29,844 nucleotides of DNA from a virus (taxonomy: Duplodnaviria > Heunggongvirae > Uroviricota > Caudoviricetes). Numbering within the stretch: position 1 is the first letter of the stretch; the number at the start of each line of letters is the position of its first letter. Made by a program: the position numbers and the translations under genes. Location: the IMG/VR virus record IMGVR_UViG_2541047968_000011. One strand, written 5' to 3'. The notes below the pieces were generated by a model. The model ran no database searches. It was not told the DNA's origin and was given only the letters and a program-made list of their open reading frames with translations. Shown in pieces: positions 2,591 through 29,844 of the stretch.

Positions 2591-3343
2591 ATGAACCTTG
2601 AAGCTTTACCAAAATATTACTCCCCAAAATCTCCAAAATTGAGCGATGACGCACCGGCGACAGGCTTGGGTGGTTTAACAATTACAGATGTGATGGCTGC
2701 GCAGGGGATGGTGCAGTCGAAAGCACCGCTTGGGTTTGCCTTATTCCTGGCAAAAGTTGGTGTTCAGGATCCTCAGTTTGCGATTGAAGGTCTGCTCAAT
2801 TACGCGATGGCACTGGATAACCCGACATTGAACAAATTGAGTGAAGAAACCCGGCTACAGATCATTCCTTACCTTGTGAATTTTGCCTTTGCTGATTATT
2901 CCAGGTCTGCGGCAAGTAAGGCTCGCTGTGAGCGTTGTGCTGGTACTGGATTTCATAATGTATTGCGCGAAGTGGTGAAACACTCCAGAAGCGGGGAGTC
3001 TGTTATCAAGGAAGAGTGGGTGAAGGAACTATGTCAGCATTGTCATGGTAAGGGAGAAGTCAGCACAGCGTGCAGAGGGTGTAAGGGTAAAGGTATTGTC
3101 CTGGATGAAAAAAGAACCCGGCTTCATGGTACGCCTGTTTATAAGATTTGTGGGCGTTGCAATGGAAAACGGTTTAGTCGTTTACCAACCACACTGGCGC
3201 GGCATCATGTCCAGAAACTGGTACCAGACCTGACGGATTATCAGTGGTACAAAGGATATGCAGATGTCATTGATAAACTGGTTACAAAGTGCTGGCAGGA
3301 GGAATCTTACGCTGAAGCACAATTGAGAAAGGTGACAAGATAA
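2591..3343 (+). CDS. Q: Late-gene antitermination protein Q (phage 21/82-type, zinc-finger class)
   Basis: 250 aa with paired Cys clusters (CERCAGTG...CQHCHGKG...CRGCKGKG...CGRCNGK). Sits immediately upstream of the lysis region with GGAG 6 nt before the ATG. Confidence 0.8.
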   Translation: MNLEALPKYYSPKSPKLSDDAPATGLGGLTITDVMAAQGMVQSKAPLGFALFLAKVGVQDPQFAIEGLLNYAMALDNPTLNKLSEETRLQIIPYLVNFAFADYSRSAASKARCERCAGTGFHNVLREVVKHSRSGESVIKEEWVKELCQHCHGKGEVSTACRGCKGKGIVLDEKRTRLHGTPVYKICGRCNGKRFSRLPTTLARHHVQKLVPDLTDYQWYKGYADVIDKLVTKCWQEESYAEAQLRKVTR

Positions 3344-3374
3344 GTGATCTTCGCCGAAAATGGTGACATGATGC

Positions 3375-3403
3375 TTGCAATTTTCAAAAAACATGGATAA
3401 GAT
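3375..3403 (+). promoter_or_regulatory. Putative late promoter (pR'-equivalent): TTGCAA - 17 bp - TAAGAT
   Basis: Sigma70-like hexamers with a 17-bp spacer about 30 bp downstream of the Q stop, where lambdoid phages carry pR'/qut. Not verifiable without tools. Confidence 0.3.
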
Positions 3404-3451
3404 TTTCTCAACGATGGGCTTTATGTATCTGCCGTTGATAACCTTCAAGAA

Positions 3452-3473
3452 CTCGCCATTGAGCGGGTTTTTT
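3452..3473 (+). terminator. Weak intrinsic-terminator-like hairpin plus T6 (tR'-like candidate)
   Basis: A 5-bp stem (ctcgc/gcggg, one G-U pair) with a 6-nt loop followed by TTTTTT, downstream of the putative late promoter. Confidence 0.25.
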
Positions 3474-3545
3474 ATTGTGTAAAAACAGAATGACGGTATT
3501 AATTAGTAATATAATTATTCGACCATACAACTAGGGGTCGAAAAA

Positions 3546-4331
3546 ATGTATGTTTTTGAGTTAATCAAGCCAGGCAGTAATCTTAAGTTTGAAAACAGAG
3601 AGTTAGAATGGACGTTTAATAACTTATTATCCCATTTAGAAACTGCATTTTATGATGCTAATGTAGCATTAAATTTATTCGAACAGGAAAGAACTAAGAA
3701 TAACAGTAAATTCGATAATATTTCTCAGACATGGCAAGCTGATGTACAGAAACGACAAGCACTGGAAATGCTGGTTCGTAAAGAGTTTGGTTATCAACCT
3801 TATGAATATTCAGAACAGGTTTTTTCAGAGGTCGAGCTACGTCTAAAAAGAGAAAAATGGAATAACGGTGAATATCCGTTGGCTCATCAACACAGATTGA
3901 TCTTCTTACATGCAAAATCATTTCTCTACGCTTTGGATGCTATTGATAAATTTTTAAAGGTAATTTCAAAAGAAAATGGCGCGCCAGAGAACATTAAAAA
4001 ATTGCATGAACAGCTTTCTAAAGACTTTCCGGATTTAAGAAAGGTAAGGAATTCAGCTCAACACATGGAAGACAGAGTTCGTGGGCTTGGTGCAGAGAAA
4101 GAACCAAAGCCAATAAAACTCAAACCTGTAAATAATATTCATGTTGTTGCACCTCAGGGGGCATTGATGTTGAATAACTTATTCGGAACTAAATTTGGGT
4201 GCACTATGGCTGATGGCTATTATGGTGAAGTAGATATTTCGACAGAGTCTTTGGCAAAGTTGCAAAATTTAATCCAAAAAGTTTTTAATTCCTTCAGTTG
4301 GGAAGGACCAAAGCAACACCTTCCCCGATAA
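3546..4331 (+). CDS. Hypothetical cargo protein, 261 aa, with an R-x4-H (RNSAQH) HEPN-like motif
   Basis: Long ORF in visibly AT-rich DNA, preceded by a G-rich RBS and followed by a strong terminator. Predicted helical and charged; RNSAQH lies at residues 168-173. It occupies the Q-holin position that carries stx or other morons in lambdoid phages. Confidence 0.7.
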   Translation: MYVFELIKPGSNLKFENRELEWTFNNLLSHLETAFYDANVALNLFEQERTKNNSKFDNISQTWQADVQKRQALEMLVRKEFGYQPYEYSEQVFSEVELRLKREKWNNGEYPLAHQHRLIFLHAKSFLYALDAIDKFLKVISKENGAPENIKKLHEQLSKDFPDLRKVRNSAQHMEDRVRGLGAEKEPKPIKLKPVNNIHVVAPQGALMLNNLFGTKFGCTMADGYYGEVDISTESLAKLQNLIQKVFNSFSWEGPKQHLPR

Positions 4332-4350
4332 CATTTTCTTTTTTATTGAA

Positions 4351-4378
4351 AGCCGCCAAATAATTGGCGGCTTTTTTA
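4351..4378 (+). terminator. Rho-independent terminator
   Basis: Perfect 9-bp stem agccgccaa/ttggcggct with a 4-nt loop, followed by TTTTTT. Confidence 0.75.
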
Positions 4379-4420
4379 TTTCACAGTACCCGCAAATATC
4401 GCGAGGTGAGAGATGACGAA

Positions 4421-4747
4421 ATGCCTCATAACCCAAATACCTGGCTGGACTTGGTCCAGAGCTGGTGGCGTGGAGACACACCGCTGGGCGCAGTGATTAT
4501 GTCGATTGTTATGGCTGGTTTACGTATCGCCTATTTTGGCGGTGGTGGCGGCTGGAAGCGAAAAACACTCGAAATTCTACTCTGTGGCGCTCTGACGCTG
4601 ACTTTTGCATCCGCTCTTGAGTATGTCGGATGGCCTAAATCACTTTCTGTTGCCATTGGTGGTGGGGTGGGGCTGATCGGTGTCGATGCTATTCGTGGGG
4701 CTGCAATGCGAGTAATCGGTAACAAATTTGGTGGCTCTAAGGAGTAA
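4421..4747 (+). CDS. Holin, lambda S-like (class I, three predicted TM segments)
   Basis: Hydrophobic segments and a charged C-terminus with an overall pattern similar to lambda S; lies immediately upstream of the R endolysin. ATG at 4421 is chosen because the longer frame from 4364 would overlap the terminator hairpin. Confidence 0.7.
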   Translation: MPHNPNTWLDLVQSWWRGDTPLGAVIMSIVMAGLRIAYFGGGGGWKRKTLEILLCGALTLTFASALEYVGWPKSLSVAIGGGVGLIGVDAIRGAAMRVIGNKFGGSKE

Positions 4748-4750
4748 TTT

Positions 4751-5227
4751 ATGCAGGTACTAAATTCCCAGCGTAAAGCTTTCCTTGATATGGTGGCATG
4801 GTCAGAAGGAACGGATAACGGGCGACAACCGACACGTAACCACGGTTATGACGTTATTGTTGGTGGTGAACTGTTTACTGATTACTCCGATCATCCTCGC
4901 AAACTTGTCACGCTAAACTCCAAACTCAAATCAACAGCCGCCGGACGTTACCAGCTTCTTTCACGTTGGTGGGATGCTTACCGTAAACAGCTTGGTTTGA
5001 AAGACTTCTCCCCCAAAAGCCAGGACGCTGTGGCATTGCAGCAGATTAAAGAACGTGGCGCTTTACCGATGATTGATCGTGGTGATATTCGTCAGGCTAT
5101 CGACCGTTGCAGCAATATCTGGGCTTCGTTGCCGGGCGCTGGTTACGGTCAGTATGAACATAAAATTGGTGACCTGATTGCCAGGTTTAAAGAGGTTGGC
5201 GGGGTGGTAAATGAAGTTGAGCTATAA
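4751..5227 (+). CDS. R: Endolysin, lambda R-type lytic transglycosylase
   Basis: Near-identity over long stretches to lambda R as recalled (...NSQRKAFLDMVAWSEGTDNGRQPTRNHGYDVIVGGELFTDYSDHPRKLVTLN...). AAGGAG sits 6 nt upstream of the ATG. Confidence 0.93.
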   Translation: MQVLNSQRKAFLDMVAWSEGTDNGRQPTRNHGYDVIVGGELFTDYSDHPRKLVTLNSKLKSTAAGRYQLLSRWWDAYRKQLGLKDFSPKSQDAVALQQIKERGALPMIDRGDIRQAIDRCSNIWASLPGAGYGQYEHKIGDLIARFKEVGGVVNEVEL

Positions 5228-5672
5228 GCTAGTTATCGCTGCTTTCTTCGTTACTATTATTGGTTCTTTCATCTGGTCAGCGAATCATTACCACAATCAA
5301 GCCATTGAATACAAAAAGCAGCGCGACGAAAACGCTATGGCATTACATTCGGCTATGGCGACGATCTCTGATATGCAGAAGCGTCAACGTGACGTAGCTG
5401 AACTTGACGCCAGATACACAAAGGAGCTTGCTGATGCTAACACGACTCTCGAAAGTCTCCGTACTGATGTCTCTGCTGGTCGTAAGCGCTTGCAAATCGC
5501 CGCCACCTGTGCAAAGTCAACGACCGGAGCCAGCGGCATGGGCTATGGAGAAAGTCCAAGACTTACAGCTGATGCTGAACTCAATTATTACCGCCTCCGA
5601 AGTGGGATCGACAAGATAACTGCACAGGTTAACTACTTGCAGGAGTACATCAAGACACAGTGCCAGAAATGA
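5211..5672 (+). CDS. Rz: Spanin inner-membrane subunit Rz (i-spanin)
   Basis: N-terminal TM segment followed by coiled-coil, with lambda Rz-like stretches (...QRDVAELDARYTKELADA...). Start overlaps the end of R. Confidence 0.85.
   Translation: MKLSYKLVIAAFFVTIIGSFIWSANHYHNQAIEYKKQRDENAMALHSAMATISDMQKRQRDVAELDARYTKELADANTTLESLRTDVSAGRKRLQIAATCAKSTTGASGMGYGESPRLTADAELNYYRLRSGIDKITAQVNYLQEYIKTQCQK
5434..5619 (+). CDS. Rz1: Spanin outer-membrane lipoprotein subunit Rz1 (o-spanin), embedded in the +1 frame of Rz
   Basis: Embedded ORF with a lipoprotein signal and lipobox (MLTRLSKVSVLMSLLVVSAC) followed by a Pro-rich mature region, as in lambda Rz1. Confidence 0.75.
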   Translation: MLTRLSKVSVLMSLLVVSACKSPPPVQSQRPEPAAWAMEKVQDLQLMLNSIITASEVGSTR

Positions 5673-5744
5673 ATCTATAGATGACACTCCTCGTTCGTAT
5701 AAGATAATGCTAAATTACTATTAGCTTAATCACAGGAGACGGAC

Positions 5745-6608
5745 ATGGAAAGAGGTGTGGTATTTAGTGCATGCGAATTACTTAAAACCGAGGATGGAAA
5801 AGGCATCCGTACAGGTAAATGGATTAGTCAATTAGAAATAAACTATCTATGTCTTTATTGGGATAAACTAGTTTCACCCACTAATAATATTATACATACA
5901 GCATTAAATAACGAGGATGAATTAGAAAAATGTGGATTGCTAACCAGACCTGTATATAGACATCATGGTTGTTTTGATGGCCAATATATGGCTGATTTTT
6001 ATGCTGAAACTCATGCCAAAACAATAGATATACTTAGGCATGCGGATTCTTCTGTCGATTGGCGCATGCATTTTTTAAGTGACCAAATAAACTTGGTGCC
6101 TGAATTATCTAGAACCTCAGAAGTGATACGTTTTGAGCTAGCAAATTTATTACCCGTTCCCACAGAAGATGTGCACCTACATGATATTCTTGATTTCAAG
6201 GAAAGAAGAAAACCTGAATTAATCGCTTTACATGAATATCTTGATGAGCTTTACTTGGAAATAAAACGTTCTGGTGATATCAATCTTCAGAAAGCAAAAG
6301 CTCTTTCTAATCTTAAACAAGCAATAAAGGATATTGAACGCTTAAATTGTGAAGTGTGGAAAAGTCCAATAAAATTTAGCATCTCTACTTCCTTTGAGTT
6401 CGATTTTTCACAAATATTTACTCTGGCGGGAACTGTTTTATCTATGTCAGTAGATTATCCTTATAATGTTATTGGAGGGGTAAGTAGTTTTGCTTATTTT
6501 TTGGGAGGATGCATAAAAATAAAGCCACAATTTCAACAAGTGTTATCATTAGGTAATGATAAATTAGTTTACATAAGCAAAGGAAAATCGGAGGGTATTA
6601 TTTCCTGA
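5745..6608 (+). CDS. Hypothetical cargo protein, 287 aa, no recognised family
   Basis: Long ORF in AT-rich DNA with AGGAG 9 nt upstream of the ATG. It sits between the lysis cassette and the HNH/terminase genes. Confidence 0.65.
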   Translation: MERGVVFSACELLKTEDGKGIRTGKWISQLEINYLCLYWDKLVSPTNNIIHTALNNEDELEKCGLLTRPVYRHHGCFDGQYMADFYAETHAKTIDILRHADSSVDWRMHFLSDQINLVPELSRTSEVIRFELANLLPVPTEDVHLHDILDFKERRKPELIALHEYLDELYLEIKRSGDINLQKAKALSNLKQAIKDIERLNCEVWKSPIKFSISTSFEFDFSQIFTLAGTVLSMSVDYPYNVIGGVSSFAYFLGGCIKIKPQFQQVLSLGNDKLVYISKGKSEGIIS

Positions 6609-6684
6609 TTTTTGATTCTCATAATCAATGAATGTTTTTTGTGAATATACTTATTTTAACCATATAAATAATCAAGGTAATAAA

Positions 6685-7035
6685 GTGCCTCCTCGTATCC
6701 CGAAAGCCTGCCGTGCTCGAGGTTGCCGTAATACCACCACAGACCCGTCAGGCTACTGCGAAAGCCACAAAAGCGAAGGCTGGAAGCAATACAAGCCAGG
6801 CCAGTCCCGACACCAGCGCGGTTATGGTGCGAAATGGGATTTTATCCGTGAACGTGTGCTCAAGCGTGACAAAGGCCTGTGTCAGTTGTGTTTGCGTGCC
6901 GGTGTGGTGCGCGAGGCGAAAACCGTTGACCACATCATCCCTAAAGCACATGGCGGCACTGATGCCGACAGTAATCTGCAGAGTCTGTGCTGGCCGTGTC
7001 ATAAGGCGAAGACGGCCCGTGAACGGTTGAAGTAA
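6685..7035 (+). CDS. HNH endonuclease (terminase-associated)
   Basis: Cys/His-rich motifs (...CRARGC...C..H...DHIIPKAHGGTD...N...CWPCH) and position directly upstream of terS. GTG at 6685 is preferred over the AT-rich extension from 6628. Confidence 0.78.
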   Translation: MPPRIPKACRARGCRNTTTDPSGYCESHKSEGWKQYKPGQSRHQRGYGAKWDFIRERVLKRDKGLCQLCLRAGVVREAKTVDHIIPKAHGGTDADSNLQSLCWPCHKAKTARERLK

Positions 7036-7061
7036 GAACCAGTTCCCACTGCCAGAGGGGA

Positions 7062-7120
7062 GGGGCGGGTCAAATCCCTGTGACCTGACGTCTTCCGGAC
7101 TGCCCGCCCCATCGTTTTTT
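7062..7120 (+). other. GC-rich inverted repeat (ggggcggg ... cccgcccc) followed by T7; terminator or cos-associated structure
   Basis: 8-bp GC stem arms separated by about 33 nt, then TTTTTTT, in the HNH/terS intergenic region where HK97-like phages place cos. Confidence 0.3.
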
Positions 7121-7160
7121 TATACCCGCGAAAAATGAAATTTAACCAGGAGTGCCGCAT

Positions 7161-7655
7161 ATGGCTGGAACGGCGGGGCGTTCCGGGCGTCGCCCCAAGC
7201 CAACGGCGCGCAAGGCGCTGGCCGGAAACCCCGGCAAGCGAGCCCTGAATAAAGATGAACCTGTTTTTACGCCCATCAAAGGTGTTGAGCCACCGGAGTG
7301 GTTCGCTGAAGAAGATCTCCCTCTCGCCACGATCATGTGGCAATTGACAACTAAAGAACTTTGCGGTCAGGGCTTGCTGTGCGTGACTGACCTCGCGGTG
7401 CTTGAGCGGTGGTGTGTGGCCTATGAGTTCTGGCGACGTGCCGTGAAAAATATTGCCAGACAGGGCAACACCATCACCGGTGCAATGGGCGGTATGGTCA
7501 AAAATCCTGAGCTGACCGCCAAAAAAGAACAGGAGTCCGAGATGAGCAGCACGGGGGCAATGCTCGGACTCGACCCCAGCAGCCGCCAGCGTCTGATTGG
7601 CCTGGCGGGGCAGAAGAAAGCTATTAACCCGTTTCTGAAAATCATCGAATCATGA
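7161..7655 (+). CDS. Terminase small subunit (P27-family-like)
   Basis: N-terminus [27 protein letters not shown] is typical of P27-type TerS. AGGAG sits 8 nt upstream of the ATG at 7161, and the gene is followed by terL. Confidence 0.82.
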
Positions 7656-9579: not shown

Positions 9580-10820
9580 TGTTCTTTTCGGGATTATTTC
9601 AACGAAAAAGTGACGCACCGGTGACCACGCCAGCAGAGCTGGCGGATGCTATCGGGTTGTCCTACGACACCTATACCGGAAAGCAGATCAGCAGCCAGCG
9701 GGCCATGCGACTGACGGCGGTTTTTTCCTGTGTCAGGGTGCTGGCGGAGTCGGTCGGGATGTTGCCCTGCAACCTGTATCACCTGAACGGCAGTCTGAAG
9801 CAGAGAGCCGCTGGCGAACGTCTGCATAAGCTGATCTCCACGCATCCCAATGGCTATATGACGCCGCAGGAGTTCTGGGAGCTGGTGGTCACCTGTCTGT
9901 GCCTGCGGGGAAACTTTTACGCCTACAAAGTGAAAGCATTTGGCGAAGTGGCTGAACTGCTGCCCGTCGATCCCGGCTGTGTGGTACCGAAGCTTAACAG
10001 TAGCTGGGAGCCGGTCTATCAGGTCACATTCCCGGATGGCTCCACGGATGTACTGAGCCAGGAGGATATCTGGCATGTGCGCACGCTGACGCTGGACGGA
10101 CTGGTGGGGCTGAATCCCATCGCCTATGCCCGCGAGGCAATATCGCTGGCGGCAGCGACCGAAGAGCACGGGGCCAGACTGTTCAGCAATGGCGCGGTGA
10201 CGTCGGGTGTGTTGCGTACAGAGCAGACGCTGTCAGATCAGGCTTATGAGCGCCTGAAGAAAGATTTTGAGGAGCGTCACACCGGGCTTGGCAATGCTCA
10301 CCGCCCGATGATCCTTGAGATGGGGCTGGACTGGAAGTCGATGGCGCTGAACGCCGAGGACAGCCAGTTCCTGGAAACCCGCAAGTTTCAGCTTGAAGAA
10401 ATCTGTCGTCTGTTCCGGGTGCCGTTGCACATGGTGCAGAACACCGATCGCGCCACCTTCAACAATATCGAAGAGCTGGGGCTGGGATTTATCAACTATT
10501 CACTGGTGCCGTATCTGACCCGCATTGAGCAGCGGATCAACACCGGACTGGTACGAAAAAGTAAGCAGGGCGTTTATTACGCCAAATTTAACGCCGGGGC
10601 CTTACTGCGCGGGGATATGAAGTCCCGTTTTGAAGCCTACGCTACCGGGATCAATTGGGGAATTTACTCTCCCAATGACTGCCGCGACCTGGAAGATATG
10701 AATCCGCGTCCCGGTGGTGATGTCTATCTCACACCGATGAACATGACCACGAAACCCTCCGATGGCAGTAAAGCCGGTAAGCAGAAGGATAACGCTAATG
10801 CAGACGAAACAACGTCTTGA
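9579..10820 (+). CDS. Portal protein (HK97-family-like)
   Basis: 413 aa, positioned after terL. GTG start with GGAGG 7 nt upstream. Confidence 0.88.
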   Translation: MFFSGLFQRKSDAPVTTPAELADAIGLSYDTYTGKQISSQRAMRLTAVFSCVRVLAESVGMLPCNLYHLNGSLKQRAAGERLHKLISTHPNGYMTPQEFWELVVTCLCLRGNFYAYKVKAFGEVAELLPVDPGCVVPKLNSSWEPVYQVTFPDGSTDVLSQEDIWHVRTLTLDGLVGLNPIAYAREAISLAAATEEHGARLFSNGAVTSGVLRTEQTLSDQAYERLKKDFEERHTGLGNAHRPMILEMGLDWKSMALNAEDSQFLETRKFQLEEICRLFRVPLHMVQNTDRATFNNIEELGLGFINYSLVPYLTRIEQRINTGLVRKSKQGVYYAKFNAGALLRGDMKSRFEAYATGINWGIYSPNDCRDLEDMNPRPGGDVYLTPMNMTTKPSDGSKAGKQKDNANADETTS

Positions 10821-25101: not shown

Positions 25102-25921
25102 GGCACTGTTGCAAAGTTAGCGATGAGGCAGCCTTTTGTCTTATTCAAAGGCCTTACATTTCAAAAACTCTGCTTACCAGGCGCATTTCGCCCAGGGGAT
25201 CACCATAATAAAATGCTGAGGCCTGGCCTTTGCGTAGTGCACGCATCACCTCAATACCTTTGATGGTGGCGTAAGCCGTCTTCATGGATTTAAATCCCAG
25301 CGTGGCGTTGATTATCCGTTTCAGTTTGCCATGATCGCATTCAATCACGTTGTTCCGGTACTTAATCTGTCGGTGTTCAACGTCAGACGGGCACCGGCCT
25401 TCGCGTTTGAGCAGAGCAAGCGCGCGACCATAGGCGGGCGCTTTATCCGTGTTGATGAATCGTGGGATCTGCCACTTCTTCACGTTGTTGAGGATTTTAC
25501 CCAGAAACCGGTATGCAGCTTTGCTGTTACGACGGGAGGAGAGATAAAAATCGACAGTGCGGCCCCGGCTGTCGACGGCCCGGTACAGATACGCCCAGCG
25601 GCCATTGACCTTCACGTAGGTTTCATCCATGTGCCACGGGCAAAGATCGGAAGGGTTACGCCAGTACCAGCGCAGCCGTTTTTCCATTTCAGGCGCATAA
25701 CGCTGAACCCAGCGGTAAATCGTGGAGTGATCGACATTCACTCCGCGTTCAGCCAGCATCTCCTGCAGCTCACGGTAACTGATGCCGTATTTGCAGTACC
25801 AGCGTACGGCCCACAGAATGATGTCACGCTGAAAATGCCGGCCTTTGAATGGGTTCATGTGCAGCTCCATCAGCAAAAGGGGATGATAAGTTTATCACCA
25901 CCGACTATTTGCAACAGTGCC
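25102..25921 (-). mobile_element. IS26 (IS6 family) insertion sequence, complete, 820 bp
   Basis: Perfect 14-bp terminal inverted repeats GGCACTGTTGCAAA at 25102-25115 and TTTGCAACAGTGCC at 25908-25921. Length is exactly 820 bp, it encodes Tnp26, and it is flanked by 8-bp direct repeats. Confidence 0.95.
25154..25858 (-). CDS. tnpA: IS26 transposase Tnp26
   Basis: 234-aa translation MNPFKGRHFQRDIILWAVRWYCKYGISYRELQEMLAERGVNVDHSTIYRWVQRYAPEMEK... is recognisable as the IS26/IS6-family transposase. Confidence 0.95.
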   Translation of the reverse strand: MNPFKGRHFQRDIILWAVRWYCKYGISYRELQEMLAERGVNVDHSTIYRWVQRYAPEMEKRLRWYWRNPSDLCPWHMDETYVKVNGRWAYLYRAVDSRGRTVDFYLSSRRNSKAAYRFLGKILNNVKKWQIPRFINTDKAPAYGRALALLKREGRCPSDVEHRQIKYRNNVIECDHGKLKRIINATLGFKSMKTAYATIKGIEVMRALRKGQASAFYYGDPLGEMRLVSRVFEM

Positions 25922-25929
25922 GTATTTTC
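25922..25929. repeat. IS26 target-site duplication (right copy), GTATTTTC
   Basis: Identical to 25094-25101. Confidence 0.85.
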
Positions 25930-26229
25930 AGGGTAATCACCCGGAGCTGTGATTTCTTTTGACTCTCCAGTTTTGGTGCTATAGACGATTTCACCGCGAT
26001 GGTCTGGCACATATTCCCATGAGTTAAAATTTGCAGAACGACAGATAGCATAACCCACCTTATATGTGCCAGGGGCATCTAAACAGGAATATGCAGGAAT
26101 ACCGACACCAATGGCAAGATATTCAGTTGAAGCTGAAATATATTCCTGCGTCTCACTATCATAGTTATAAACGGTAATATCCCCCGACTTTGTAGCAATA
26201 AGCTCACTATTTAATATTGCTTTATCCAT
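25922..26229 (-). pseudogene. Tail-fibre assembly gene tfa', N-terminal fragment interrupted by IS26
   Basis: Minus-strand ORF starting at 26229 (MDKAILNSELIATKSGDITVYNYD...HRGEIVYSTKTGESKEITAPGDYPENTALL) runs into IS26. Removing IS26 plus one duplication copy restores a continuous 201-codon Tfa-like frame. Confidence 0.75.
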
Positions 26230-26736
26230 TATGCTGCTCTCACGATATAGTTAAATGCAATGTTTCGAGGGCGATTCTCTGATGCTGTTGGTACAACCCT
26301 GGATGCATCAAAACTGAATCCTGTGTAAGGGGTATTTTTTGTTTCATATGTGCCTAGGTTATTATAGATATTTCGCGTAGCTTGAGATGCTAAGGCAAAA
26401 GCACCAGTACCAGTCTGTAACCTGAAAGTTGCTGTATCAATGGTGCCTTTAACTTCATTTATAAAGCCTGTTATATTCCGAATGGTATCTCCCTGTGACG
26501 AAAGCAAGCTACGGTTAGTATCAATCCCTCTTCCATCATCCCAGCCACGAATAAACTCACCGCGTAAATCAGGCAATTTATTTGTCGGGTAAACCTTTGC
26601 CAGTTCCGGGTATTCTTCAGCAGAAAAAGCCGCCCCGTTGCATTTCAGCCAGCCTGTTGGCGGAGTGGCGGAAGGCCACGGAACAGGCACGCCAACGGGT
26701 AATGCCGAACCTTCTCCCAAACCAACGTTTATGAAA
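26229..26736 (-). CDS. Alternative tail-fibre C-terminal segment (inverted orientation, no independent start)
   Basis: Minus-strand frame encodes ...VGLGEGSALPVGVPVPWPSATPPTGWLKCNGAAFSAEEYPELAKVYP... It begins at the right crossover site and would join the constant fibre N-terminus in frame at LGLGE/VGLGEG after inversion. Confidence 0.7.
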
Positions 26737-26737
26737 A
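26711..26737. other. Invertase crossover site, right (inverted copy); reverse complement TTTTCATAAACGTTGGTTTGGGAGAAG
   Basis: The right half GGTTTGGGAGAAG is identical to the left site in inverted orientation. It lies just upstream of the invertase gene, as in the Gin/Cin/Pin systems. Confidence 0.6.
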
Positions 26738-26791
26738 TGCAGAAATAACGATCAAATGGCATCATTCCTGCTTTTGTCAGGGAGATCTACC

Positions 26792-27346
26792 ATGCTTATT
26801 GGCTATGTACGTGTGTCAACAAATGACCAGAACACAGATCTACAGCGTAATGCGCTGAACTGTGCAGGATGCGAGCTGATTTTTGAAGACAAGATAAGCG
26901 GTACAAAGTCCGAAAGGCCGGGACTGAAAAAACTGCTCAGGACATTATCGGAAGGTGACACTCTGGTTGTCTGGAAGCTGGATCGGCTGGGGCGTAGTAT
27001 GCGGCATCTTGTCGTGCTGGTGGAGGAGTTGCGCGAACGAGGCATCAACTTTCGTAGTCTGACGGATTCAATTGATACCAGCACACCAATGGGACGCTTT
27101 TTCTTTCATGTGATGGGTGCCCTGGCTGAAATGGAGCGTGAACTGATTGTTGAACGAACAAAAGCTGGACTGGAAGCTGCTCGCGCACAGGGACGAATTG
27201 GTGGACGTCGCCCCAAACTTACACCAGAACAATGGGAGCAGGCCGGACGATTAATTGCAGCAGGAATTCCTCGCCAGAAGGTAGCGATCATCTATGATAT
27301 TGGTGTATCGACTTTGTATAAGAGGTTTCCAGCCAGGATTATATAA
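26792..27346 (+). CDS. pin: Serine-recombinase DNA invertase (Pin/Gin/Hin/Cin family)
   Basis: 184 aa with N-terminus MLIGYVRVSTNDQNTDLQRNAL... (catalytic Ser in the VRVST context) and a C-terminal HTH. GGAG RBS; adjacent to the invertible fibre segment. Confidence 0.92.
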   Translation: MLIGYVRVSTNDQNTDLQRNALNCAGCELIFEDKISGTKSERPGLKKLLRTLSEGDTLVVWKLDRLGRSMRHLVVLVEELRERGINFRSLTDSIDTSTPMGRFFFHVMGALAEMERELIVERTKAGLEAARAQGRIGGRRPKLTPEQWEQAGRLIAAGIPRQKVAIIYDIGVSTLYKRFPARII

Positions 27347-27542
27347 AACCGCAGACACGCCGTATGCAAGACGTGCTGCGGTTGGCTGATGCACTTTCGA
27401 GAGTGTATGTATTGAATTATTTCCAGCCGTTACTGATTTTACGTATTTTTTGTATGAGAGGAGTTGCACCACCTCTTAAGCATAATTTGTTAGAATCATG
27501 GCAGCACAATAGCCATATATCCAATATAAAATACTTAACCTT

Positions 27543-28442
27543 CTAATCATTATGGAGTATTTGATCGCCGTATGGCCAGCCATTTTCCCCAGGAAGGGTC
27601 ATACCTAACATTGGCATAATACTAAGTTGTCCAATGGTAAATCCTAGAGCACTTGTATTACTGATTCCGGCATAGGTCATATCAAGGGGGTTAGACTCTG
27701 AGCTGGACATAAAAAGATTTCTTGTGCCAATTCTATTCGCCATTGAGAACTGAATATGCCCACCAATTGTATTTACGGTGTCCTGAGATATCCAGTTGTT
27801 TAACGCGATAAATGGCGCCCGCCACCAGTTAAGCGTGCCATTCTCAAAACGCCCCCTCGTCATCTCAATATCTTCCCGAAACTGCTGCTTTCTGTCTCCC
27901 AAGACTACCGGGGTACCTGTTGTCAGGTCAAGGCAGTCCTCAATTACAAGATTAGTGGGGTTTGATGGGGTGTTGTAGATCTTAATGATTTTATGTACCT
28001 GTGTTCTGAAACAGAATCCGTAAATAATCATCTCCGTTGCTACAGAACGGGGAAAAAACTGGCCAATATCCAGTATAAATTTTTCCGCGATTCCCTTTGT
28101 TAAAACTGCAATTTCATAAAGACTCGGGTAACTATCATAAGTCAACTCCGGCTGCTGAACATCATAATAATTAACTTCATGTAATGAAGATAATGATACG
28201 GCAAGTAACTCCTTCACATTTATACCGATCATTGTTCCTCCTGCAAAGCCGAAACCAAACTCCATAATTTTTTCCGGAGATAGACGGTATATGTCATTGG
28301 AGCGAATAACTGATACCGGAATCGAGAATAGTTTAGGACAGTGATTTGTCATTACACTTTCATGCTGGGTGATTCTTGAGTCGCTTACGGCCCAGATACT
28401 TTCCCCTTCTTCCCTGTTTAGCCAGCAGGCTATTGCTGTCAT
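27543..28442 (-). CDS. Hypothetical cargo protein (299 aa from the RBS-supported ATG; the frame is open to 28580), no recognised family
   Basis: Long minus-strand ORF in AT-rich DNA. A strong SD (AAGGGGG) sits 7 nt upstream of the ATG at 28442. It lies immediately downstream of pin. Confidence 0.6.
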   Translation of the reverse strand: MTAIACWLNREEGESIWAVSDSRITQHESVMTNHCPKLFSIPVSVIRSNDIYRLSPEKIMEFGFGFAGGTMIGINVKELLAVSLSSLHEVNYYDVQQPELTYDSYPSLYEIAVLTKGIAEKFILDIGQFFPRSVATEMIIYGFCFRTQVHKIIKIYNTPSNPTNLVIEDCLDLTTGTPVVLGDRKQQFREDIEMTRGRFENGTLNWWRAPFIALNNWISQDTVNTIGGHIQFSMANRIGTRNLFMSSSESNPLDMTYAGISNTSALGFTIGQLSIMPMLGMTLPGENGWPYGDQILHND

Positions 28443-28923
28443 TGAAAACCCCCTTTTAAGTAAAAAAATCAGATTCAGATAGTGCATACATAATTTAGTC
28501 AAGTCATCTCTTTTAAGACGCATTGAGAAATGGTTGCTCAAGGTGCGCCAGTGAACGCGCACGAAAATAACTTCTTGCATTTCCCATTACACTCTGACTT
28601 TAGGGCCGCGTTAGATTTTAACATGGTGGCCGTGCATCCATTTAAATTGGTAATCTGGAGAATGAGTAACGCTGAATAGATTAACAATCTATGCGACTAA
28701 CGGCCCTTAAAAGCGCAGCTCATAACATCGAATTTTACCAGTTTAGTCATTTTTAAAAAGTGCCCGAAAAATGTTGTCCACGATTTGTGCTCTACGTCCC
28801 ATCTTGACCTACTCCCTGATAATTCACTCAGAAGGCGGTTAGCAATGTCCGTTAAGTGCTCACAACGGACATTCAGCCCACTAAATCCGACCGTGTCGCT
28901 CAATATGCGGACAGGTTGTAGTG

Positions 28924-29526
28924 CTAACTGCATTGTAGCTGTGAGATTTCACCATCGATGGCTTCTATAACCTGTTTATAGCGGAGCATGACCTCATCAT
29001 GAATCATCATTAATCCGCGGCCGTACTCTGTGGCTAGGATTGTGTATCTTTTCAGGTGTGCAAGATGTTCTTTGTTGCCAGTAATGTCACTTGCAACCTG
29101 CGTGGAGTCCAGCCGTTCGATAAGCGCATTATTGCCGCGATAGGAATCAATTAGGCTTCTTGCGCTTGTATAAAAAGCCACAATTTTTGAGAGTGTTTCT
29201 CTATGAACTTCAGGTAGGGATGCCGAGTTGGCTTCATAGAACGTGAAGTAGTTTTGAGTAATGGGGAAAATGTTATCGAACGGTGAGTTCCGGTCGTATT
29301 TTTCGATTTCTTCTGCCATTCTGGCCTGATACAGTTTAATCAGTGAGTCTATTTCCTCTCTGACACCCAATAGCGTTGTTATACGCTTCTCTCTGGCCGC
29401 TGTTGCCTGCTGTTTTGCCTGCTGTTTCACCTGAGTTGTCACTCCTATCATCGTGAAACAGCCACCTAAAAGAGCTGCTAAAAATGCGGAGATGAGATCT
29501 GAATATTCGTGCCAGAAGGTTAGCAT
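28924..29526 (-). CDS. Hypothetical membrane-anchored coiled-coil protein (200 aa)
   Basis: Minus-strand ORF with an N-terminal hydrophobic segment (LISAFLAALLGGCFTMIGV) followed by a charged helical region. AT-rich; no convincing SD, so the start is uncertain. Confidence 0.45.
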   Translation of the reverse strand: MLTFWHEYSDLISAFLAALLGGCFTMIGVTTQVKQQAKQQATAAREKRITTLLGVREEIDSLIKLYQARMAEEIEKYDRNSPFDNIFPITQNYFTFYEANSASLPEVHRETLSKIVAFYTSARSLIDSYRGNNALIERLDSTQVASDITGNKEHLAHLKRYTILATEYGRGLMMIHDEVMLRYKQVIEAIDGEISQLQCS

Positions 29527-29844
29527 GGCGAAAATTCCATTGGGTTAAATTATGTCTATTTAACCACATAATGATACGAAGATACCTTCCAAAATGTTGC
29601 CATGTACTCATCTGTTGTTGCCTGGCTGGTGACGTGTCTGGGTGTTAGCACCGTGCTCTCTCATTGTCTGAGTCTGGGCCAATCCACGCTCATAGCAGGC
29701 ATTCACTTCAGTCATGGCGGAAAGGTATGCATGCTGGGTGGGGAAAGTGTGAAAGAAAAGAAGACTGCTGCGTCGTTTGTCGTCACGTTTATCTTCATTG
29801 GCTATGCAAGTCGTAATACAAGGTGGGACAAAACTGAGACACAT

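Follow-up and report, generated by a model that had tools for sequence, protein, structure and literature searches.

A DUF6236 moron gene in the variable lysis-to-packaging segment of an Escherichia coli prophage, and its possible part in phage conflict

The gene and its slot

The window, a stretch of 29,844 nucleotides held in IMG/VR as the Caudoviricetes record IMGVR_UViG_2541047968_000011, is an Escherichia coli prophage of the HK97/P27 type. The gene under study lies on the plus strand at 5745..6608 (stop codon included), starts with ATG and encodes a 287-amino acid (aa) member of the DUF6236 family, RefSeq WP_000439452.1; it is a self-contained moron in the variable segment between the lysis and packaging genes. 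The initial annotation, made from the letters alone, had this open reading frame (ORF) exactly, with strand and start, and its good ribosome-binding site, the Shine-Dalgarno sequence AGGAG read from the sequence at 5734..5738 (plus strand, 6 nt 5′ of the ATG). It had also called the gene unrecognised and its product free of any assignable motif, and here it has to be corrected: RefSeq names the protein as a DUF6236 family member, Pfam DUF6236 (PF19749) matches it at 110.5 bits against a gathering threshold of 26.2 (E 1.3e-31; residues 24-232 on profile positions 74-277 of 324), and PHROG 23128 (phrog_23128) matches it end to end (E 7.2e-144; residues 1-285 on positions 1-288 of 288). By both profiles the window protein is a bona fide member with no difference from the family.

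The gene stands out from its surroundings by composition, as its codon usage had already suggested. Its G+C content (GC) is 0.338 and its third-position GC (GC3) 0.226, in a window of GC 0.514; the flanking values are 0.472 and 0.494 for Rz, 0.510 and 0.515 for the HNH gene, and 0.573 and 0.631 for terS, and the neighbours including terL span 0.47-0.57 in GC and 0.43-0.65 in GC3. At all 13 loci checked the gene is richer in AT than its own flanks. The copy in strain ECONIH5 is 100% identical to that of the window, and copies of at least 99.7% nucleotide identity were found in 32 of 5,426 complete E. coli genomes, all chromosomal and all annotated as DUF6236 family protein, the identical protein being the above RefSeq entry. 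Comparison with homologues of about 70% identity gave 0.17 nonsynonymous (pN) and 0.72 synonymous (pS) differences per site, for a dN/dS of about 0.07-0.13, an approximate value because dS is near saturation. That the ORF is a real gene and no chance frame follows from its RefSeq annotation, the 32 E. coli genomes, the 1,727 protein clusters of its family (see below) and this low dN/dS, a mark of strong purifying selection.

Upstream of the gene lie a lambda-type holin, a GH104 lysozyme and Rz (Pfam Phage_lysis, 7.6e-39), the last with an Rz1-type ORF embedded at 5404..5619 (lipobox LVVSAC). Downstream follow an HNH gene (2.7e-16; about 6685-7035 in the window with RefSeq start at 6686, and 9941-10291 in the ECONIH5 locus L001), P27-type terS, terL, portal, HK97-type protease and capsid, and a sheathed tail. 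Pfam and ORF content thus bear out the flanks first named for the gene, Rz/Rz1 and an HNH-terminase module. Between Rz and the gene is an AT-rich intergenic leader (5673..5744, plus strand, from the Rz stop to the DUF6236 start; GC 0.36) with no predicted terminator, and on the other side a very AT-rich spacer (6609..6685, plus strand; GC 0.18) with no convincing intrinsic terminator, whose end marks the right-hand limit of the variable segment. HK97-type phages have their cos site between the HNH gene and terS; if this placement holds for the window, its slot is also cos-proximal.

We surveyed the junction from Rz to HNH/terS in related E. coli prophages, using positions 5000-7400 as query, and found iss (the bor homologue), DUF2441, KilA-N or hypothetical genes there. 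The clearest case is strain GTEN_24, whose prophage backbone matches the window at 98.5% identity as far as 5163 and at 96.1% from 6686 on (blastn breakpoints); it holds iss, on the opposite strand, in place of the DUF6236 gene, and homology resumes exactly at the HNH start, 6686. The junction is therefore a variable cargo or moron slot, as first proposed from lambda, since iss replaces the gene on a backbone of 96-98% identity with a right breakpoint at 6686. Of the marks of a moron in the Juhala/Hendrix sense, an additional transcription unit in a phage genome, the gene shows different cargo between the same genes in related phages and a distinct nucleotide composition, and in the window it has no predicted terminator of its own. 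It is a compositionally foreign, horizontally acquired accessory gene.

The family, its genomic settings and the protein

A profile search of 1.84 billion cluster representatives (50% identity) returned 1,727 at E≤1e-3, 393 of them at E≤1e-30. The family is spread over many phyla, from Gammaproteobacteria to Bacteroidota and Acidobacteriota. All 150 relatives that we aligned match the same Pfam model, and the 150 listed are, with few exceptions, proteins of 270-310 aa that stand alone. In this and two other family-wide searches every match listed consists of one DUF6236 domain and has about 285 aa, and among the matches listed in those other two none has a second Pfam domain or an informative name; domain fusion was looked for and not seen, apart from occasional short N-terminal extensions of SEC-C type. 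Residues conserved in at least 90% of the 150 diverse members are G4, L37-Y38-W39-D40, P45, W106, L132, P137, P139, L149, F151-K152, Y170, D178 and Y276. The window protein has no similarity to any virion or lysis family, its sole matches in Pfam, PHROG and NCBIfam being to function-unknown DUF6236 and phrog_23128, and homologues occur outside phages as well; a structural or lysis role is accordingly unlikely, as had been judged at the outset from position. A full-text literature search for the name DUF6236 found no papers, the name occurring only in supplementary tables, and the family is without assigned function, solved structure or dedicated literature.

One distant relative, P0181, gave matches among the 150 to the PADLOC models E2, E1-E2 and PDC-S12 (E 1e-5 to 1e-4). 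These are confined to its 24-aa tail, residues 278-301, which align with the C-terminal ends of the models and exclude the DUF6236 body, and we rejected them.

In enterobacterial relatives the gene stays between the lysis and the packaging genes even where the types of lysis cassette and terminase are unrelated. All six of the enterobacterial prophage homologues looked up follow directly on the lysis cassette and precede the packaging genes, on the late-gene strand; they come from Klebsiella (47% identity), Salmonella (48%), Enterobacter hormaechei (51%), Citrobacter freundii (69%), Providencia (41%) and Enterobacter (33%). Their lysis cassettes, of at least four kinds, are holin_8 with GH108 or GH19, holin_2/lysozyme/DUF2514 and holin_3_3/M15/LysC, compared with lambda S/GH104/Rz in the window; their terminases are of four types, Terminase_4 with HNH, Nu1/GpA, Terminase_2/6C and Mu-F/portal_3. 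We extended the comparison to 69 IMG/VR loci, whose ORFs were labelled by BLAST against annotated genes of enterobacterial prophages, and looked on either side, up to 5 kb away, for a lysis gene upstream and a packaging gene downstream. Both neighbours were present in 33 of the 44 loci of at least 39% identity, one only in 11 (mostly truncated contigs) and neither in none, while below 39% identity neither was present in 19 of 24. In Enterobacter-type prophages a 485-aa ORF without Pfam match recurs in the same slot directly 3′ of the DUF6236 gene (L078 7060-8517 and about 10 IMG/VR loci, e.g., L095, L097, L100, L101, L107, L108); it is absent from the window.

More distant relatives are found in other settings. 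They adjoin integrases in Vibrio and Klebsiella temperate phages, and single cases lie in a small integrative element, in a toxin-antitoxin/abortive infection (Abi) mini-island of AbiEii/TacAT/MqsA, and on a 6.7-kb MobA-type plasmid. The last is a 6,687-bp contig from JGI metagenomes (L019/L018) that was recovered from three samples in different circular permutations, and it encodes a MobA/MobL relaxase and has the DUF6236 gene as its largest cargo; the permutations and the relaxase fit a small mobilisable plasmid. No conserved partner gene emerged: among 39 diverse loci (144 crude neighbour ORFs scanned) no Pfam or PADLOC family occurs at more than two, and at a few of the loci the neighbours are restriction-modification, PD-Lambda-1, PIN or integrase genes. 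With no recurrent partner and a stand-alone architecture, DUF6236 would act, if at all, as a single protein.

AlphaFold2, run with the 150-sequence alignment, gave a model with mean predicted local distance difference test (pLDDT) 85.1 and predicted template modelling score (pTM) 0.84. An N-terminal alpha/beta body is modelled with strands at residues 2-7, 10-14, 21-26, 41-43, 104-110 and 122-138 and helices at 29-38, 57-62 and 79-100; then come a helix at 145-154 and a long helical hairpin (156-175 and 181-204). In the C-terminal part strands at 209-218, 257-267 and 273-279 flank a poorly modelled segment, where pLDDT falls below 50 at 239-249. Searches against the sequences of solved structures, made with the single protein and with profiles of 38 and 150 sequences, and the confident model itself found no whole-fold match in the PDB, so that the remote-homology and structure searches yielded DUF6236/phrog_23128 and no structural relative. 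Matches to a helix-loop-helix of 14-3-3 proteins ('YxEILxSPD', E at least 0.14) were judged a helix-capping coincidence.

The low-confidence part of the model coincides with a Gly/Ala-rich, charge-poor, moderately hydrophobic segment, residues 219-261, encoded at 6399..6527 (plus strand). Family-wide this segment has 12.2% Gly and 14.9% Ala, compared with 4.7% and 5.6% elsewhere, and small-xxx-small-xxx-small motifs at 5.66 per 100 aa, compared with 0.64 in the N-terminal part; the hydrophobicity maximum falls within the C-terminal segment in 130 of 150 members. The Kyte-Doolittle maximum over 19 residues is 1.25 for the window allele, with a family median of 1.48, and 27% of members reach 1.6. 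This enrichment in Gly/Ala zippers is real, yet it does not show membrane insertion, and conditional insertion is offered as a hypothesis only. The window protein has neither a signal peptide nor a conserved lipobox, and with its low hydrophobicity it is predicted to be cytoplasmic and soluble. A Bor-like lipoprotein was considered and dismissed: the candidate Cys10 (FSAC) is preceded by only nine residues, too few for a signal peptide and lacking a hydrophobic core, and other family members do not conserve it.

These features bear on the idea that the gene is a lysogenic-conversion or host-fitness factor like bor and iss, expressed by the lysogen and altering its physiology, stress tolerance or colonisation. 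The presence of iss in the same slot on an almost identical backbone speaks for this, as do the conserved promoter-like element of the gene, the many distant homologues that stand solitary among metabolic or housekeeping genes, and the failure of a homologue to protect against phage (both taken up below). A protein predicted to be cytoplasmic is, however, not a surface factor like Bor or Iss, signal peptide and conserved lipobox being absent; no enzyme or regulator domain is recognisable, and the family recurs in a P2 defence hotspot, in toxin-antitoxin islands and on the small mobilisable plasmid. On balance we consider a conversion factor unlikely.

Transcription signals and other features of the window

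Upstream of the gene is a putative promoter recognised by comparison, the extended -10-like element TGCTAAATT (TGn plus TAAATT) at 5708..5716 on the plus strand. Overlapping it is an alternative sigma-70-like site at 5681..5708 (plus strand), with ATGACA, a 16-nt spacer and GATAAT (10/12 matches); this was the best-scoring site of a consensus scan of 3300-7300, where the total number of sites was not above shuffle expectation. We compared 36 distinct upstream regions of homologues (33-100% protein identity). In 33 of them the motif TGnTAnnnT starts between -44 and -30, amid bases that have diverged, and shuffled sequences averaged 1.0 with no more than 5, which is good comparative evidence that a promoter-like element travels with the DUF6236 gene.

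A C-rich stretch that can pair with the Shine-Dalgarno sequence occurs in many homologue leaders (CCCCA/TGGGG, ACCCTC/GAGGGT, CCTTAGA/TCTGAGG; e.g., L095 492-529, L013 7969-8006, L004 7969-8006), with stems that differ by lineage. A conserved hairpin sequestering the Shine-Dalgarno sequence was rejected, as the window allele lacks it (5717-5747, minimum free energy -1.7, z +1.2); RNAalifold on an ungapped alignment of leaders found no consensus structure, and covariation was not established.

A downstream terminator scan flagged 15 of 32 homologous lineages, about 10 with a strong intrinsic terminator within about 80 nt. The window allele has no predicted intrinsic terminator within 180 nt downstream and none between Rz and the gene. 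Since it also lies on the strand of the late operon, the window gene may simply be a late gene, and it is probably read as part of the late transcript as well.

An accessory gene expressed late in the service of the prophage's lytic cycle, acting in lysis timing, in cos or packaging events or in late superinfection exclusion rather than as a moron of the lysogen, would suit this arrangement: late-gene strand, no predicted terminator from Rz to the gene or from the gene to HNH, and a place after the spanins and before packaging that is kept across differing lysis and terminase modules. Set against it is the distribution of the gene, which is carried by 32 of the 5,426 E. coli genomes when 3,438 match some part of 5000-7400 (including lysis and HNH/terS), and which is therefore dispensable. 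Homologues moreover occupy non-phage chromosomal sites, a plasmid, integrase-adjacent sites and the P2 gpA-gpQ hotspot; around a third of the lineages have their own terminator and nearly all their own promoter-like motif; and no similarity to known lysis or packaging proteins was found. A helper role thus appears quite unlikely.

Other accessory features of the window may be listed here. A second AT-rich ORF, at 3546-4331 on the plus strand (261 aa; GC 0.358, GC3 0.305), lies between the antiterminator gene Q (2591-3343) and the holin gene and is bracketed by terminator-like hairpins at 3447-3472 and 4348-4375. It is RefSeq WP_000289222.1, matches phrog_5322 over its full length and has no Pfam domain; its cluster is a 'Predicted novel defense gene' with log-odds of about 10 in the DefensePredictor study (Table S10, PMC13092281). 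ECONIH5 has a DNA methyltransferase in the slot of this ORF. The same strain has an ISEc33 (IS630-like) transposase between lysozyme and Rz (L001 7353-8384), by which its lysis cassette is interrupted; the window cassette is intact. At the right end of the window (25154-29611), 3′ of the tail genes, several ORFs are encoded on the minus strand against the late-gene direction, among them 27543-28580 (345 aa) and 28924-29526 (200 aa).

A possible role in conflict

Two published surveys bear on function. DefensePredictor, a machine-learning method applied to 3,000 E. coli genomes (DeWeirdt et al., Science 2026; PMC13092281, Tables S4, S5, S10), labels the WP_000439452.1 cluster 'Predicted novel defense gene' with a mean log-odds of about 7.5, and gives other DUF6236 proteins 8.3-11. 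In the second survey (Rousset et al., 2022; PMC9122126) the cos-adjacent gpA-gpQ region of P2-like phages was described as a hotspot with old, tin and other anti-phage systems, further cargo there including DUF4238 and DprA-PRTase. Table S5 of that paper has an entry for a family '125 DUF6236', next to which the neighbouring column reads 23, and one for an arrangement 'hypothetical + DinI + hypothetical + PIN_12' that contains WP_053901735. We found a relative of 30% identity in this cos-proximal defence hotspot, adjoining a PIN protein.

A conflict-related function, in which the protein excludes other phages or elements, is in our view the most likely one, and we put the probability that the gene is a stand-alone conflict or exclusion moron at about 0.4. 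The reading is supported by the settings in which the family occurs (lambdoid moron slot, P2 hotspot, integrase-adjacent slots, toxin-antitoxin/Abi island, small plasmid), together with the stand-alone architecture, the low GC and the independent machine-learning prediction. The lysogen would produce the DUF6236 protein from the gene's own promoter; acting alone in phage-phage or phage-host conflict, it would keep out a limited range of incoming phages, which would probably be other temperate or cos phages. The initial annotation had thought an accessory or defence role plausible; the variable slot supports the accessory part, and defence stays a hypothesis.

The sole experimental datum on the family is negative. 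A randomly picked homologue, WP_097421955.1 (289 aa, id '6236', log-odds 8.56), was cloned in pCV1 (pSC101 origin) together with the region naturally upstream of it, introduced into MG1655 and scored 'defensive = FALSE' against 24 phages (PMC13092281). Its HHblits log-odds of -3.08 signifies no remote homology to known defence proteins (PMC13092281). In the same study 42 of 94 candidates were validated, and its authors point out that a candidate scored negative could still prove defensive with a different phage, host or choice of gene boundaries (PMC13092281). This negative concerns a homologue and not the window allele itself, and a narrow target range would explain the null panel.

Further points weigh, with this assay and the HHblits score, against a role in conflict. 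Neither PADLOC (0 matches) nor the NCBIfam models recognise anything in the window protein. The slot also hosts non-defence cargo such as iss, and the window allele has the terminator-free surroundings described above. Many distant homologues sit among ordinary housekeeping genes, including solitary ones in Pseudoalteromonas and Psychrobacter, and a defence-type gene lies within two genes at about 5-6 of the 39 diverse loci, which is no clear enrichment. A classical transmembrane protein was also tried and rejected, the hydrophobicity of 1.25 being too low and the N-terminus not hydrophobic. The probability is held at its value because the relative's experiment was negative and because so many distant homologues have unremarkable contexts.

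Two further explanations draw on the same assay. The protein might serve in counter-defence or inter-element competition, against systems of the host or of rivals. For such a protein a negative defence assay is the predicted outcome, the hotspot cargo of temperate phages and satellites includes genes of inter-viral competition, and a compact, predicted cytoplasmic protein with a long modelled helical hairpin and conserved charged motifs would suit protein binding. Anti-defence genes, however, are usually small, early-expressed and confined to phages. Unlike these, the family is of about 285 aa and occupies many non-phage chromosomal sites; no target system co-occurs at the 39 diverse loci, and we regard this explanation as improbable. 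Equally slight are the chances that the gene is a passenger, selfish or neutral, such as the remnant of a toxin-like or addiction gene that now brings its carriers no benefit. Its distribution is indeed patchy, its AT-richness would likely leave it silenced by H-NS, and the single test of a homologue gave no phenotype; but strong purifying selection (dN/dS about 0.1), the 1,727 clusters with motifs conserved across many phyla and the conserved promoter-like motif all argue otherwise.

As to how exclusion might work, one may speculate that the N-terminal body and helical hairpin (residues 1-205, with the YWD, LPVP, FKxRR, LDELY and SxD motifs) would sense or bind a trigger, and that the glycine-zipper-like segment (about 220-260) would be the effector, oligomerising or perturbing a membrane. 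This division into sensor and Gly/Ala-rich effector is drawn from composition and model confidence only, and it is unlikely, if anything a little more so than a conversion factor, to prove right. The fullest version of the idea, which we hold to be doubtful, is that DUF6236 would be a new-fold, single-protein effector of immunity or inter-phage competition with its own promoter, shared by the lambdoid/HK97 and P2 cos-proximal hotspots; its targets would be limited to phages that standard panels lack, for instance rival temperate cos phages, and a conditionally exposed glycine zipper might be its means.

The gene, its family and the defence hypothesis were already on record (RefSeq, Pfam, PHROGs, Table S5 of Rousset 2022, the DefensePredictor tables). 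New here are the strict conservation of the lysis-to-packaging position, the extended -10-like motif conserved with the gene, a link joining two likely cos-proximal hotspots (the cos position of the window being inferred from HK97) and the finding that the fold has no match in the PDB. If DUF6236 is an exclusion system, it would be a widespread single-gene immunity family (1,727 clusters) with no solved structural relative, and it would support cos-proximal junctions as general defence hotspots in lambdoid and P2/P4 elements alike. At present it is one more conserved function-unknown protein in a known moron slot, and of practical value as a defined candidate for narrower assays with temperate-phage panels and native lysogens.

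The nearest comparison by position is with bor of lambda and iss of E. coli, morons of the Rz-to-cos junction in lambdoid prophages, which occupy the same slot and are likewise extra genes distinct in composition from their neighbours. Bor and Iss are, however, lipoproteins of about 97 aa, with iss on the opposite strand, whereas the window protein has 287 aa, is encoded on the late-gene strand and is unrelated in sequence. With the gpA-gpQ hotspot the likeness is one of setting: its phages are P2-like and the window phage lambdoid/HK97-like, DUF6236 is not among the three additional systems with reported defence there, and cargo unrelated to defence, partition systems and cytolethal distending toxin for example, is found in the hotspot as well (PMC9122126). 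Among single-protein Abi or exclusion systems the closest parallels are BstA, GiPD474 and P2 Tin and Old. DUF6236 differs from them in having no similarity of sequence or fold to any, no ATPase, nuclease or DNA-binding domain (GiPD474 of Gifsy-1, considered as a relative, is an unrelated ATPase-domain protein) and no member with a demonstrated protective phenotype. In organisation it resembles them, for they too are stand-alone, prophage-borne, placed in variable slots and predicted to be cytoplasmic, and they are independently promoted, as the window gene would be from its putative promoter.

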